Position numbers and translations under genes: made by a program
Shown here: positions 352-5,259 of the stretch, in pieces
Position numbering within the stretch: position 1 is the first letter of the stretch
How the letters are laid out: each line of letters starts with the position of its first letter
NCBI GenBank assembly: GCA_944391615.1
Contig: CALXUE010000001.1
Coordinates: 134,550 to 198,549, forward strand
DNA length: 64,000 nucleotides
DNA from: an uncultured Alphaproteobacteria bacterium
GTDB taxonomy: Bacteria > Pseudomonadota > Alphaproteobacteria > RF32 > CAG-239
Reading direction: 5' to 3'
Notes under the pieces: model-generated
What the model was told of the DNA's origin: nothing
What the model saw: only the letters and a program-made list of their open reading frames with translations
Databases searched by the model: none

Positions 352-3327
352 ATGAATTTACAAAAACACTTCATCAAACCCATCGCTTACAGTATTCTGG
401 CATTAAGCGTGTCGAGCATAGCGATAAGTTCAGCCTTGGCATCTCCTTATAACAACGGTCTGGCAGCGGAACGCAACACGCCGCAAATAGAGCGCCGCAT
501 TCGGACCGAATATGCGCCGACCACATCGGGCAACAGCTTTTTTGCGCAACCTCAAGCCGAATATACGGGCCAAGTTCAAACACAAGCGCAGCCACAGGCA
601 GCACCGCGTGGTGGGATAATAGATGTTTCTTCACAAGCAACAACTTCGGGCAAGACCTATCGAGACGGCAGCATTTTGGGAGGCACCTGCTGCGAAGCAA
701 ATGAAAATCAAGATAACTCGATTTTCCCCGGATATGGCTGCGGCGGCAGAGACAAGAATCAAGACAATTCCATGATACCCGGCCAGGGTTGTGGCGGCTA
801 CGGCAAAGCCTGCGACCGCATTGTTCCGGTCAAAGCATCACCGTGCACACTCAACCCCAAGGCCTGCAAAACAAAAAAAGCCAAGGTTGAAGTACAAACC
901 CCTGAAACCATACGTTACAACTTTGTGCAAAATTATGTCATGAAACCGCGTCACGATGTTTATAGCAGTATTCATAACCAATGCGGAAAATTTGCACCGA
1001 TACAACTTGAGTGGGTAGACTTCAAGCTCAACGGCGACGACATCAACGGCAATTTGGCGCAAAAACTTGGCAACTACCGTTTCCGTATTTTCGGTTGCCG
1101 TCGTTTCAACAAAGAGGCCATTTTGAATCAAGGCCGATTGATGGAACAAAATATGAAGTTGATTAACGTCTTTGATGAAAAGTTCAAAGATTGCTTTAAT
1201 ATTGTAAAAATTCCAAACTCTGTCTGCACGGAAGAAACGCCCAGCCCATTGCCGGATTATGTCATTAGTGCAGAAATCACCAATTATTTCATGAACATCT
1301 GCGACAAATATAATTGGGATGAGGCATCGATGGCCAATCAGCGGATAGGTTCATCCGAAATCAAAGTCAAATGGACCATAACCGACATCAACCATAATCA
1401 GGTTTATTGGACAGGAGAAACAGATGGTTACGGCGATTTGCTGAGAGGCGAAGAAAACGGCGAAATTTTGTTGGTGGAAAAAGCCTTTGCCGATGCTGCC
1501 AACAACTTAAAGAATCACCCCGGTTTCTTAAACCAAGTCAGCAAGAAGATAGCTCCGGCAGAAAAAGAAGGGCAGAGAGAGCTTTATATTCTTAACGAGC
1601 GTAAGAACAACCCGATTAAATGCCAATACACCAACCACGAGGCCGAGGACAATCGTGTAACCAAATACGTCTACACCCCGCAGAACGGCCCGATGGAACA
1701 ACCCACAGCTCAACCATCAACGCAGAAAGCCCCATCGCGTCAACAACCAACGGGATTATTGCCGATGGCTGGAGGCGCAGGTGCCTTGACCCAAACGACA
1801 ACACCGGCAACAACCACTTCTGCCCCGATAAAAATAACGCAGACCACAGAAATCATTACCGAAAATGTTGAAGGCCCGAACGGACCGGCCATTTTGGTCA
1901 AACAAAAAGTCACCTCAAACGACATTCCGTTAACCAGAGATAAGCCCGTGGCACAACCTGCGCCACAGCAACCACAACCTGTTCTGCAAGATGAAGAAAT
2001 TGTTGTTAAAGGCCTCAATATTGAAGAGAGCGCGGCACCAGCTCCGCAAATGGTTGAAGAGAGTGCACAATCAGCAGAAATATTACTAAGCTCAGAACCA
2101 GCACCTGAGCCCTATGACCCAAGCATGAGCGCCCAACCGACTCAAATGAGATATCAAGCGAAAAAAGCCCTGGCTCAAGAGCCTCTCATCAAAACACAAA
2201 CCATGGAAGAAGGCGGCAGCAAGAGCAGTTCGAGTGAAACGACAGGAGGAACGGAAGGCAGCGGCATTGGTGTGAGCAGTATTCTTCCGGGAGTTGCCGG
2301 AGCAGCAGCCGGAGCGGTTGCGGCGGTAGTAGATGCCGTTGCCCCAGAAACACCATGCAACAACATGACCTTATTTGGTCCGGATTGCGATTGCAACAAC
2401 AAGACCATGCGAGGCTGTGAAGACAACAAGACCATGCGTGGCTGTGAAGACAACACATTAGATGAACCTTGTGACAAATGCGGCGGCCTGTTTGGCTCCT
2501 TCAAAGAAGGTTGCGGTGTTGAAGAAGACGGCGGTGTCAAGACACTCGGCGCCATCACACAAGAGAGCTGGATAGAAGTTCCGGTTGAAGACAAGAGTGC
2601 GATTGCAGCGCAGAATATGCTTTGCATAGTTGAAAGAGCACCATACGACGTGCCGTTAACACCGGAAGATGTATACAAGATAAGAGCATCAATCATATCC
2701 ATCACCAATACCCAAGGCAAACAAGGAGCCGGCTTGATAGTATCCGAGCAGTTTGTTTTGACTTCAGCGGATATGATAACCACGGCACAAGACAGCTACA
2801 AGCTCAAAACAATTAACGGCAAAGAGTTCACGGGACATCCGGTCAGGATCAACACCGACAAGAACACAGCTTTGTTGTATCTTGATGACAAGATGGAATA
2901 CACACCGTTGTCATTGAACTTGAGCTTACCGCCAATAGACCAGAAGACCTACATGAGTTTAGGAATTCTTGACTTTAACACCGGCGAAGGTTACCTTGAA
3001 GACGCCGGCAAGATAAGCGGTTACCGTTATAGCGAACAAAAGGGCACAGAGATAATTGTTGACACCTTTGTTCAAAACATCACCTTAGGCGGTGCGTTAA
3101 TAGACAAGAACGGTACGATAACGGGCTTTGCACACTCGGGAGCCGACAGTGAAGAAAACACTGACTTCTTCTTGCCGATAGCCACAGCATTAAAGAGCCT
3201 AGGTTTAGAGATATGCGGCAAGCAGATTCAAGACATACCGGTCAAGAACGAAACCATCAGTGATGCGATTTTGTTCAACACCGGCAACAAAGAACCTCTA
3301 CCGTTAGACAAGTCGGAACGCAAATAA
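352..3327 (+). CDS. Large (991 aa) Sec-secreted modular protein: Cys/Gly-rich tandem motifs, a long P/Q/T-rich linker, and a C-terminal trypsin-like (S1/DegP-type) domain that has lost its catalytic His and Ser
   Basis: Signal peptide MNLQKHFIKPIAYSILALSVSSIAISSALA-SP. C-terminal segments GAGLIVSEQFVLTSADM and GGALIDKNGTITGF align to the protease HtrA-type LTNAHV and GNSGGPL boxes, but His is replaced by Asp and Ser by Ala. There is no flanking synteny partner. Confidence 0.55.
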   Translation: MNLQKHFIKPIAYSILALSVSSIAISSALASPYNNGLAAERNTPQIERRIRTEYAPTTSGNSFFAQPQAEYTGQVQTQAQPQAAPRGGIIDVSSQATTSGKTYRDGSILGGTCCEANENQDNSIFPGYGCGGRDKNQDNSMIPGQGCGGYGKACDRIVPVKASPCTLNPKACKTKKAKVEVQTPETIRYNFVQNYVMKPRHDVYSSIHNQCGKFAPIQLEWVDFKLNGDDINGNLAQKLGNYRFRIFGCRRFNKEAILNQGRLMEQNMKLINVFDEKFKDCFNIVKIPNSVCTEETPSPLPDYVISAEITNYFMNICDKYNWDEASMANQRIGSSEIKVKWTITDINHNQVYWTGETDGYGDLLRGEENGEILLVEKAFADAANNLKNHPGFLNQVSKKIAPAEKEGQRELYILNERKNNPIKCQYTNHEAEDNRVTKYVYTPQNGPMEQPTAQPSTQKAPSRQQPTGLLPMAGGAGALTQTTTPATTTSAPIKITQTTEIITENVEGPNGPAILVKQKVTSNDIPLTRDKPVAQPAPQQPQPVLQDEEIVVKGLNIEESAAPAPQMVEESAQSAEILLSSEPAPEPYDPSMSAQPTQMRYQAKKALAQEPLIKTQTMEEGGSKSSSSETTGGTEGSGIGVSSILPGVAGAAAGAVAAVVDAVAPETPCNNMTLFGPDCDCNNKTMRGCEDNKTMRGCEDNTLDEPCDKCGGLFGSFKEGCGVEEDGGVKTLGAITQESWIEVPVEDKSAIAAQNMLCIVERAPYDVPLTPEDVYKIRASIISITNTQGKQGAGLIVSEQFVLTSADMITTAQDSYKLKTINGKEFTGHPVRINTDKNTALLYLDDKMEYTPLSLNLSLPPIDQKTYMSLGILDFNTGEGYLEDAGKISGYRYSEQKGTEIIVDTFVQNITLGGALIDKNGTITGFAHSGADSEENTDFFLPIATALKSLGLEICGKQIQDIPVKNETISDAILFNTGNKEPLPLDKSERK
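703..798 (+). repeat. Two tandem degenerate coding repeats of about 45-48 nt (N-Q-D-N-S-x-x-P-G-x-G-C-G-G) inside the 991-aa gene
   Basis: Direct comparison of 703-747 with 751-798. Confidence 0.6.
2398..2451 (+). repeat. Two near-perfect tandem 27-nt coding repeats (NKTMRGCED x2) inside the 991-aa gene
   Basis: aacaagaccatgcgaggctgtgaagac and aacaagaccatgcgtggctgtgaagac are adjacent. Confidence 0.8.
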
Positions 3328-3346
3328 GGTTCTACCTGCTAAACGA

Positions 3347-3379
3347 CAAAAGCCCGCTTGCAAAAAAAGCGGGCTTTTG
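3347..3379. terminator. Bidirectional rho-independent terminator between convergent genes
   Basis: Perfect 11-bp stem aaaagcccgct / agcgggctttt with a 9-nt loop; A/T tracts lie on both sides. Confidence 0.6.
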
Positions 3380-3389
3380 TGATGCAATA

Positions 3390-4235: not shown

Positions 4236-4269
4236 TTTCTCCTCCTAAATAATAATTAAACTTTCTCTT

Positions 4270-5106
4270 TTACTGTTCAAAAGCGCAGTAGTCGCAGTAA
4301 TCTTGACAGCCCGCAGCACAACCCGTCACATAATATTTGTTGGAACATTCTTCATAAGTGCAGACCGAACACGGCGGGCAGGTGTCATATTCCCCCAAAC
4401 TCGGGCAGGGCTTGCATTCGCTATACATCATATTTGTGCCCGATAAGCACGAGGTTGCCCCGACCTTGCCGCCCATCGAGCCGCAATCTTGATATCCTTC
4501 ACAAGGGTTGACTTTGATTTTATACATCTCCCCGTTACAGGATACACAGGGCTCACCATCCGCCACATAGCCATCGGGAATATCTTCTTTTTTGTAGGAA
4601 TAGCCGTCGCAGTAGTCACATTGACAACTGGCGTAATAACCGTCACCGCACTCTTGCCCCACACCATGATAAGGCTCTTCACATTGCTTATAATTACTCG
4701 GGCAGTCTTCAATACATTCGGCAAAATAACCGTCGGCATACAAACATTCCTTGTTGCCCTTATAGCCATTGGGACAGTTGGTCACGGTATAACCTTCGGC
4801 AATACAATCAGCCGGCCCTTTGGGAACATAATCATCAGGATTACCGCCCGAACCATTCAAATCAGAATCAACAAATTGCATACCAGAACAATCACCGGTA
4901 TCCATAATCCAGCAAACTTGCGCAACTTTGATAAACTTATCGGGAGATAAGCCGGAGGCATCAGACAAAAACTGTGTGTGTTGTGTGTTGGTCAAAAAAT
5001 CCTTGTCTGTTGTCTTGAAATTTGAAACATCAGCATATACATTATTATAACTAAAAAGCCATAATAAAGCATTGCATGCTGAAAACAAAAAAGTTCTATT
5101 TTTCAT
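4270..5106 (-). CDS. Secreted protein with a very Cys/Gly/Tyr-rich C-terminal half (recurring C-x-x-G-Y / D-G-Y motifs, about 35 Cys)
   Basis: Start chosen at the internal MKNRTFLF with RBS aaaggtg; the ORF-track start is 5184. Signal peptide ...FSYNNVYA-DV. Lies 34 bp upstream of the previous gene on the same strand, so a probable operon. Confidence 0.5.
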   Translation of the reverse strand: MKNRTFLFSACNALLWLFSYNNVYADVSNFKTTDKDFLTNTQHTQFLSDASGLSPDKFIKVAQVCWIMDTGDCSGMQFVDSDLNGSGGNPDDYVPKGPADCIAEGYTVTNCPNGYKGNKECLYADGYFAECIEDCPSNYKQCEEPYHGVGQECGDGYYASCQCDYCDGYSYKKEDIPDGYVADGEPCVSCNGEMYKIKVNPCEGYQDCGSMGGKVGATSCLSGTNMMYSECKPCPSLGEYDTCPPCSVCTYEECSNKYYVTGCAAGCQDYCDYCAFEQ

Positions 5107-5218
5107 TTTCGAAACACCTTTCAACTTATCTCCACGACTCGTATTATACCACAAGGAAAAAAGTCTGTAAATAGAAATTTTCAAGGATTGACAAGGGTTT
5201 AGGCAATCCCTTTGCGCA

Positions 5219-5259
5219 AAAAAAGAGGCTTAGGAATGTTCCTAAACCTCTTTTTTTTT
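5219..5259 (-). terminator. Intrinsic terminator immediately after the 179-aa paralog gene
   Basis: Palindrome aagaggcttagg...cctaaacctctt flanked by A-run/T-run. Confidence 0.55.

Follow-up and report, generated by a model that had tools for sequence, protein, structure and literature searches.

A comM-adjacent pseudoprotease gene and a recombining cassette for a putative surface-protein pair in an uncultured gut alphaproteobacterium

The window analyzed here is a 64,000-nucleotide (nt) stretch of DNA from an uncultured Alphaproteobacteria bacterium (GenBank assembly GCA_944391615.1, contig CALXUE010000001.1, positions 134,550 to 198,549). At its left end, the 3' end of comM is followed by three genes, termed P1, P2, and P3; P2 and P3 are on the minus strand and are convergent on P1. 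An initial reading of this sequence (the original prediction) treated the three genes as one horizontally acquired, GC-rich island of secreted, Cys-rich proteins. The reading favored here, to which a probability of roughly 60% was assigned, is that the interval holds two unrelated units: the inherited gene P1, and a recombining P3-P2 cassette whose products would be a strain-variable surface adhesin or lectin pair.

All three consecutive open reading frames (ORFs; 991, 281, and 278 aa) were confirmed, and the P3 ORF can be extended upstream to a TTG at 5184. The assignment of the left-hand gene as comM was also confirmed: a match to Mg_chelatase_C (E = 2e-22) is encoded at 99-338, TIGR00368 matches as well, and comM is complete (507 aa, 7508-9031) on L001, a longer contig of the same organism. 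P1 starts 13 nt past the comM stop and has its own ribosome-binding site (GGAGA); it is probably co-transcribed with comM. Export signals were read heuristically from the n-, h-, and c-regions. In line with the signal peptides claimed for the three proteins, each N-terminus has a basic n-region and a hydrophobic core and then an AXA-type cleavage motif, which reads ALA|S in P1, AEA|A in P2, and VYA|D in P3. The dense Cys clusters ascribed to all three proteins were found in P3, whose mature form has 27 Cys (10.1%), and in P2 (4.6%); P1 contains 2.3%, located in two clusters.

The two hairpins described in the original prediction proved to be real. Considering both hairpins on both strands, the folding energies were -21 to -24 kcal/mol (z of -4.8 to -6.8), and 0 of 200 shuffled sequences folded as well. 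Both have the attributes of intrinsic terminators, i.e. a stable, GC-containing hairpin and a T run, with tails of T4 and T7-T10. The hairpin at 3347-3379 (-24.1 and -22.1 kcal/mol on the plus and minus strands, respectively; z of -6.8 and -5.5) is flanked by A4 and T4 and is also present in the related locus L084. The hairpin at 5219-5259 (-23.9 kcal/mol on the minus strand, followed by T7; z of -6.8) had been taken for the boundary of an island; it is instead the terminator of the gene at 5261-5800. Its assignment to the cassette was also considered and was rejected after four loci were compared, because it is common only to cassettes at the same site (L084) and not to those at other sites.

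Table 1. Positions of the genes and features discussed in the text (numbering of the window)
Feature	Positions	Strand	Basis
comM/yifB 3' end (Mg-chelatase-like AAA+ ATPase)	1-338	+	Pfam Mg_chelatase_C and TIGR00368
P1 (991 aa), lineage-conserved, putatively exported protein	352-3327	+	ORF; export read heuristically
P1 signal peptide, residues 1-31, cleavage ALA|SP	352-444	+	Heuristic; N-terminus type kept across homologs
P1 short Cys-containing repeats (DGSIFPGGxC type), residues ~105-165	664-846	+	Alignment
P1 conserved N-domain, residues ~190-430, LptE/CsgG/PelC-like alpha/beta fold (predicted)	919-1641	+	
P1 variable T/A/P/G/E/Q-rich low-complexity linker, with Cys cluster at residues 669-721	1642-2613	+	Composition
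P1 C-terminal HtrA/Trypsin_2-like domain	2614-3324	+	Pfam PF13365
Bidirectional intrinsic terminator common to convergent P1 and P2	3347-3379	both	Hairpin fold
P2 (281 aa), second cassette gene	3390-4235	-	ORF
P2 variable C-terminal head	3393-3962	-	Alignment
P2 Ile-rich heptad stalk	3987-4052	-	Alignment
P2 invariant 5-Cys N-module	4068-4166	-	Alignment
P3 (278 aa from ATG at 5106), first cassette gene	4270-5106	-	ORF
Cassette promoter and leader	5129-5200	-	Best promoter match in 1-7500, 11/12 with TG
Upstream block AAACCCTTGTCAATCCTTGAAAATTTCTATT; -35 element TTTACA	5171-5166 (-35)	-	
Extended -10 element TGTGGTATAAT	ending at 5143	-	
Invariant leader ACGAGTCGTGGAGA	5142-5129	-	
Terminator of upstream gene 5261-5800; right-hand edge of cassette insertion	5219-5259	-	Hairpin fold

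For examination of the conservation of P1, comM loci with 10-kb flanks were searched by tblastn, using one genome per species. A P1 homolog was located directly 3' of comM in 33 of 33 loci having a comM at least 67% identical to that of the window (L004-L035 and L038), and none was found in any locus of this set with a comM of 62% identity or lower. For P1, this is the result by which the original prediction had said it would be refuted. In L016, P1 is followed directly by infB; in L006, a homolog of the 5261-5800 gene lies 45 bp past P1, and infB is next. The exact P1 protein is encoded on metagenome contigs (ENA BRZ_ samples and one Logan assembly) that match the window across the overlap; for L001, there are 3 mismatches in 6,489 nt. 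All 277 P1 homologs come from uncultured gut Alphaproteobacteria, as do all homologs of P2 and P3; the source names include "Azospirillum sp. CAG:260" and "Alphaproteobacteria bacterium", and the related metagenome-assembled genomes include Candidatus Scatocola. The GC contents of the P1 orthologs (35-54%) track the local genomic GC (33-50%) and are usually a few points higher; the slight GC excess is thus a property of the gene family. Because the comM synteny holds in 33 of 33 loci and the GC content follows the host, P1 is placed in the core rather than in an island. Judging from gene order and composition, it is a vertically inherited gene of this uncultured gut clade. In L084 (3394-6426), P1 is in pieces (a 385-aa gene call plus small ORFs). 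Since this locus holds a run of 100 N, the fragmentation is probably a scaffolding gap, not a pseudogene.

The architecture of P1 was read from an alignment of 24 sequences. In the N-domain, roughly 60 positions are invariant, and the predicted model (mean pLDDT, the predicted local distance difference test score, of 66.7) has a fold similar to those of LptE, CsgG, and PelC. The long, disordered linker that follows is not alignable between homologs. The original prediction held that none of the three proteins matched a nameable family, but PF13365 (Trypsin_2) matches P1 residues 792-925 with 28.7 bits (cut-off, 27.6). The sole matches to P1 in the PADLOC library were to this protease domain, which supports the fold. 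A profile of the P1 family yielded weak matches to HtrA structures in the PDB (E about 0.3), which were used solely to place the catalytic positions. In this alignment, the catalytic His, Asp, and Ser positions are occupied by D807, N838, and L912 of P1. Among 120 homologs, the first of these positions is D in 116, E in 2, and G in 1; the second is N in 117; and the third is I, L, V, or T, never Ser. Given that the triad is substituted family-wide, the C-terminal domain is a conserved pseudoprotease; by the residues at these positions, it cannot be a serine protease.

Two groups of known proteins are similar to parts of P1. Like the periplasmic serine proteases of the HtrA/DegP type (Trypsin_2, PF13365), P1 aligns around all three catalytic motifs. 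In contrast to those proteases, it has D, N, and I/L/V/T at the triad positions; no PDZ domain was detected in a Pfam search at E up to 1 (the protein ends ca. 45 residues past the protease-like domain), and the domain is fused via a 300-residue linker to the LptE/CsgG-like domain. The N-domain has only 9-13% identity to outer-membrane-associated lipoproteins of the LptE/CsgG/PelC/PqiC/LpoB type, and it sits within a 991-aa multidomain protein. Also, the P1 signal peptide is of the signal peptidase I type (ALA|SP), with no Cys at +1, and no canonical lipobox was present in P1 or in the P1 homologs examined. There was no LptE/CsgG/PelC-type match for P1 in Pfam or NCBIfam at E up to 1, and single-sequence searches of the PDB with the P1 domains yielded no match. 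Taken together, the architecture suggests that P1 could be a Sec-exported, non-catalytic envelope scaffold or binding protein.

The elevated GC content on which the island proposal drew was found in P1 and not in the other two genes. The first 3 kb has 46-49% GC in 1-kb bins (window mean, 40.7%), and P1, at 47.6%, is the highest of the 52 ORFs in the window. The values for P2 (40.2%) and P3 (43.2%) are ordinary compared to the 49 other ORFs (40.8 +/- 2.9%). Within P1, the low-complexity segments have GC contents of 54% and 52%, and the folded domains 42% and 45%; most of the excess comes from residues 32-165 and the variable linker (1642-2613). The GC content at third codon positions (GC3) of P1 is 0.50, compared to 0.418 +/- 0.049 for plus-strand genes (n = 22) and 0.379 +/- 0.045 for minus-strand genes (n = 25). 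This strand asymmetry (plus above minus) is present in the whole window, and it contributes to the GC-rich appearance of P1. By the Karlin B measure, P1, P2, and P3 rank 38, 41, and 52 of 52 genes, i.e. their codon usage is among the least deviant. The excess of P1 over the resampling expectation (z of 12.1) is near those of comparable long genes (12.0, 10.7, and 9.6). The composition of the interval gives no pointer to foreign DNA.

The cassette is a 1.9-kb operon comprising the promoter and leader (5200-5129), P3, P2, and the terminator (3379-3347). P2 and P3 were not present at the comM-P1 flank in 33 species representatives; the closest relatives (L084-L086; comM 87% identical) keep the order comM-P1-P2(-P3). 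As the site is empty in related species and filled in the closest ones, the cassette is taken to be a 1.9-kb insertion between the terminators of P1 and of the 5261-5800 gene. The loci of further family members were fetched, and all fetched loci were scanned with hidden Markov models of P3 and of the P2 N-module. In 15 of 15 loci with enough upstream sequence, a P3-type gene is followed on the same strand, after a gap of 16-108 bp, by a gene encoding the P2 N-module. These pairs occur in eight chromosomal contexts: the comM-P1 flank, PFK-SNase ... CitMHS, uvrC ... rpoZ-relA, recR ... cvpA-radA, porin ... recG, eptA ... malQ, gpsA ... topA-dprA, and HAD ... ABC-F. A weaker match to the P2 N-module, in L007, has no P3-type gene upstream. 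The protein concerned (8419-9363; CVATQDCATLGYT...KCPFGNKWAC) is a distant relative that has no coiled coil; its N-module passes straight into additional Cys-rich modules and a DUF1566-like C-terminus. Within the family, this architecture may be an older or an alternative one.

Ten cassettes from the eight sites were aligned together with 150-nt flanks. No similarity was found outside the cassettes, the promoter/leader was nearly invariant, and nucleotide identity was highest at the 3' end of P3 and in the 5' N-module of P2. The promoter/leader consensus reads AAACCCTTGTC..CCTTGAAAATTTCTATT(T/G)A(C/A)AG, a 17-nt spacing, TGTGGTATAAT, and then ACGAGTCGTGGAGA (in short, GAAAATTTCTATTKAMAG...TGTGGTATAATACGAGTCGTGGAGA). 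The window contains a single copy of the 20-mer TATAATACGAGTCGTGGAGA, as does each of the 11 cassette-bearing loci with an exact match. There was no match to it in the JGI metagenomes, and its occurrences are those known from the fetched loci. About 70 nt of promoter and 5' leader are nearly invariant in the window, L084, L087-L096, and L099, whose P3 proteins are ca. 50% identical and whose sites are unrelated. A common regulator or an element in the leader could account for this near-invariance. A minimal ATG-TAA start-stop follows the leader in some cassettes (GGAGACAAATGTAA). A search of positions 3300-5300 against Rfam yielded nothing above threshold.

Sequence identities among the cassettes vary abruptly along the loci. 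L087 and L092 share the PFK site, and the proteins encoded on either side are 99.4% (PFK) and 99.6% (CitMHS) identical between them; their P3 and P2 are 56% and 58% identical, respectively. The P3 of the window is 81% identical to that of L087 at the PFK site and only 50% identical to that of L084 at the comM site; the P2 of the window, on the other hand, is 86% identical to that of L084 at the orthologous comM site. L084 and L089, which come from different sites in the same sample, are 96-100% identical over ca. 400 nt, including an exact match of 201 nt. This stretch covers the 3' third of P3, the junction, and the P2 N-module; identities are 46-77% upstream of it and ca. 50% downstream. L003, a contig of the same species, is identical to the window through 4282, and it is 81% identical over its last 100 bases (4283-4382), at the 3' end of P3. 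These comparisons indicate that cassettes move, recombine, and are replaced within this lineage. Through such exchange at the conserved junction, the bodies of P3 and the heads of P2 would be shuffled, and whole cassettes would be replaced between near-identical strains. No relatives of P2 or P3 were found in 2.9 million IMG/VR viral contigs, and the cassette proteins had no match in PHROGs. The native composition and the lack of IMG/VR relatives argue for exchange inside the lineage and not for import from outside. As in polymorphic recombining surface-protein loci that have a constant and a variable region, there is a constant 5' module with variable 3' heads, the breakpoints fall at a conserved segment, and allelic replacement occurs between near-identical strains. 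Unlike in those loci, no silent partial copies, invertible promoters, or recombinase genes were found beside the cassettes; each copy is a full operon with its own promoter, and the copies are scattered among housekeeping genes.

P2 is composed of a signal peptide, the 5-Cys N-module, Ile-rich heptads, a Gly/Ser linker, and the head. Like the signal peptide, the N-module, ACIQTP(T/S)CSSLGY..S..C.GG.KCPFGN.WNC, is invariant in the family; its mean identity over 120 members is 88%, and 111 of 113 proteins have exactly 5 Cys in it. In the heptads of the stalk (TEINKIKNEITNIKNKITELENN), positions a and d are Ile or Leu, and there are no GXY repeats. Ile at both a and d favors trimers, as in GCN4-pII. 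A match of the coiled-coil type between the P2 profile and LapA4 in the PDB (E = 0.016) was rejected as low complexity. The heads of the 120 members fall into two groups that are mutually unrelated (hhalign probability, 0.1). In 43 of the 120 that share the N-module, the head is Lcl_C/DUF1566. The head of the window P2 belongs to the other group, and it had no Pfam or PDB match.

P3 has a heuristically read signal peptide, and its predicted structure is a series of small beta-hairpin modules rich in disulfides; the AlphaFold2 pLDDT is 82-94 for residues 100-260. Of its Cys columns, 13 are invariant and 10 are nearly invariant. The homologs form 85 clusters at 90% identity and include 395 representatives at 50% identity. 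Neither the predicted structure nor the P3 profile had a match in the PDB. Among the representatives from the profile search, the P3-type region also stands at the N-terminus of longer proteins (400-1067 aa), which bear extra Cys repeats (C..SY.YTC....GG.ACGGKY..C.C..GY.W) and unannotated C-terminal regions; one of them has a sub-threshold match to a pectate-lyase-like adhesive domain. Because the longer relatives add other C-terminal regions, the P3-type region seems to behave as a stalk or base. Counted without the signal peptide, Cys numbers are odd in 108 of 113 P2-family and 59 of 69 P3-family proteins. This parity fits, without proving, one unpaired Cys per protein for an intermolecular disulfide. 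A single P3-P2 fusion protein was encountered among 147 representatives, and it is likely an artefact of gene calling.

From these properties, we infer the following arrangement for the cassette products. Both P2 and P3 would be exported and disulfide-bonded. P2 would trimerize via its Ile-rich coiled coil and present its variable C-terminal head in the manner of Lcl, and P3 would be the Cys-rich partner, receiving or anchoring P2 by its invariant N-module. The link between them might be made by the one unpaired Cys toward which each family tends. Together, the two proteins would form a strain-variable surface binding structure (adhesin or lectin), and recombination around the conserved 3' end of P3 and the 5' N-module of P2 would reassort the cassettes.

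The model for this arrangement is Lcl of Legionella pneumophila, which forms trimers shaped like a "lollipop": a helix at the N-terminus anchors the protein to the surface, the stalk consists of collagen repeats, and glycosaminoglycans are bound by the DUF1566 head (PMC11162425). P2 and Lcl are alike in having an export signal, an N-terminal anchoring element (putative in P2), an oligomerizing stalk (likewise putative), and a C-terminal head, and many P2 paralogs have the Lcl_C/DUF1566 head itself. There are four differences. The P2 stalk is a short, Ile-rich coiled coil, whereas Lcl has collagen repeats there; at the N-terminus, P2 has a disulfide-rich 5-Cys module and Lcl an amphipathic helix; the head of the window P2 is not DUF1566 (hhalign probability, 0.1); and a gene for a Cys-rich partner, P3, always precedes P2, while none has been described for Lcl. 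The trimeric state, surface location, and glycan binding of P2 are proposals made from architecture only.

Several observations weigh against the favored reading. Regarding P1, its GC3 is ca. 2 standard deviations over the window mean, which is explained only in part by amino-acid composition, and the confidence of the N-domain model is moderate (mean pLDDT of 66.7). Regarding the cassette, the head of the window P2 is not a DUF1566 domain and has no known counterpart; the coiled coil spans only ca. 3 heptads, the trimer being deduced from Ile at a and d; and the P3-P2 interaction is deduced solely from invariable adjacency, co-variation, and Cys parity, with no convincing fusion among the 147 representatives. 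Moreover, the export signals were read by eye, and the presence of several cassettes per genome was deduced from contigs of similar coverage in one sample.

The same variability data fit another explanation, namely that P2 and P3 are structural proteins of the envelope or periplasm whose variability stems from phage or host-immunity selection without a ligand, or from relaxed constraint. That the window P2 head matches no known type is also compatible with it. However, strong conservation of the N-module, Cys framework, and promoter, set against ca. 50% divergence elsewhere, argues for a constrained, assembled structure presenting a variable tip. In addition, the paralogous heads come from a family with documented glycan binding (PMC11162425). 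This explanation is considered unlikely.

A polymorphic toxin or lectin-like bacteriocin, with P2 as the toxin and P3 as a co-varying partner (for immunity, delivery, or maturation), was likewise given little weight. A constant N-module (88% identity) joined to unrelated, swappable C-terminal domains is a hallmark of polymorphic toxins, P3 and P2 are swapped together between strains, and the locus is hypervariable and mosaic. Yet no toxin domain was detected, and many of the heads are DUF1566/Lcl_C, a C-type-lectin-like domain of the binding type (PMC11162425). Past P2, the usual position of an immunity gene, there is no small gene; a terminator and mostly housekeeping genes were found there in all contexts. 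P3 is upstream, large, Cys-rich, and, by the reading of its signal, exported itself. No linkage to type V, VI, or VII secretion, Rhs, or contact-dependent inhibition (CDI) genes was observed in the eight contexts.

The island of the original prediction, i.e. that the whole 5 kb was recently acquired at a comM hotspot and encodes secreted effectors or a bacteriocin, is improbable. It draws on the top-ranking GC of P1, the absence of P2 and P3 from the site in 33 related species, and the export signals on all three proteins. Against it stand the clade-wide P1-comM synteny, with P1 at the comM flank in the close relatives and a GC content that follows the host, the ordinary GC of P2 and P3, and the typical codon usage of all three genes. 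At the known hotspot in Acinetobacter, AbaR islands are inserted within comM itself and not 3' of it, which also counts against an island here. The intact, 507-aa comM means that nothing was inserted into it. There is no tRNA gene in the window; no integrase, transposase, tRNA, or phage gene was found among the ORFs scanned at 1-6456, and the five proteins encoded at 352-6456 had no match to a mobility or phage family. The observations in the original prediction were therefore confirmed in part, and its interpretation retains partial support for P2 and P3 only: they are accessory in being confined at this site to the closest relatives, although as a lineage-internal cassette and without P1, which is core. 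An adhesin-like role, one of the three that had been offered, is the best guess for these two proteins, whereas effector and bacteriocin roles found no support. Descent of the cassette from phage receptor-binding (tail-fibre) genes, for which coiled-coil stalks, swappable heads, and mosaic recombination would be typical, is very improbable, given that no P2 or P3 relative was found in IMG/VR, no PHROG matched, both proteins have putative Sec signals, and the eight contexts hold no phage genes.

A more specific proposal than that of a recombining cassette for an adhesin or lectin pair can be made only tentatively. The cassettes may constitute an undescribed system of variable surface structures, in which multiple promoter-bearing copies per genome have one shared regulatory element, a disulfide-linked P3 anchor of new fold holds a trimeric P2 with an exchangeable ligand-binding head, and recombination at the junction diversifies loci and strains. 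Lcl-like modular adhesins and polymorphic surface-protein loci are known kinds; what is added here is a P3 of unmatched predicted fold and a comM-adjacent, lineage-specific pseudoprotease. P3, with no PDB match, and P1, with an LptE/CsgG-like domain fused to a dead HtrA-like one, would be lineage-specific architectures. The clade ("Azospirillum sp. CAG:260", Candidatus Scatocola, and relatives) is common in human and animal guts, uncultured, and almost unannotated, and a literature search on the clade and its secreted proteins returned nothing relevant. The cassette would bear on gut attachment and on strain differences in these bacteria. The recurrence of cassettes would explain assembly breaks at these sites, and the invariant promoter/leader is a possible marker of co-regulated loci. 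Raised GC beside comM is, in this case, no evidence of horizontal transfer.

To the right of the cassette on the minus strand are two genes encoding proteins of 178-179 aa (5261-5800 and 5920-6456), followed by infB (7423-9975). As assembled from L001 (1-15182) and the window (1-9975), the interval from infB to rbfA contains these two genes, the cassette, P1, comM, a 108-aa gene, and rpsF-rpsR-rplI; P1, comM, and the 108-aa gene are on the opposite strand within it. The usual order nusA-infB-rbfA-truB-rpsO-pnp is thus split in this lineage. The two 178-179-aa proteins are diverged paralogs that have no signal peptide, with weak Pfam matches to Lcl_C (E = 0.0065) and the H-NS N-terminal domain (E = 0.008). 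Distant paralogs are encoded at 12831-13313 of the window and at 5138-5590 of L001, and others are scattered in the genome and in relatives. In L006 and L008, a homolog of these genes is located between P1 and infB.

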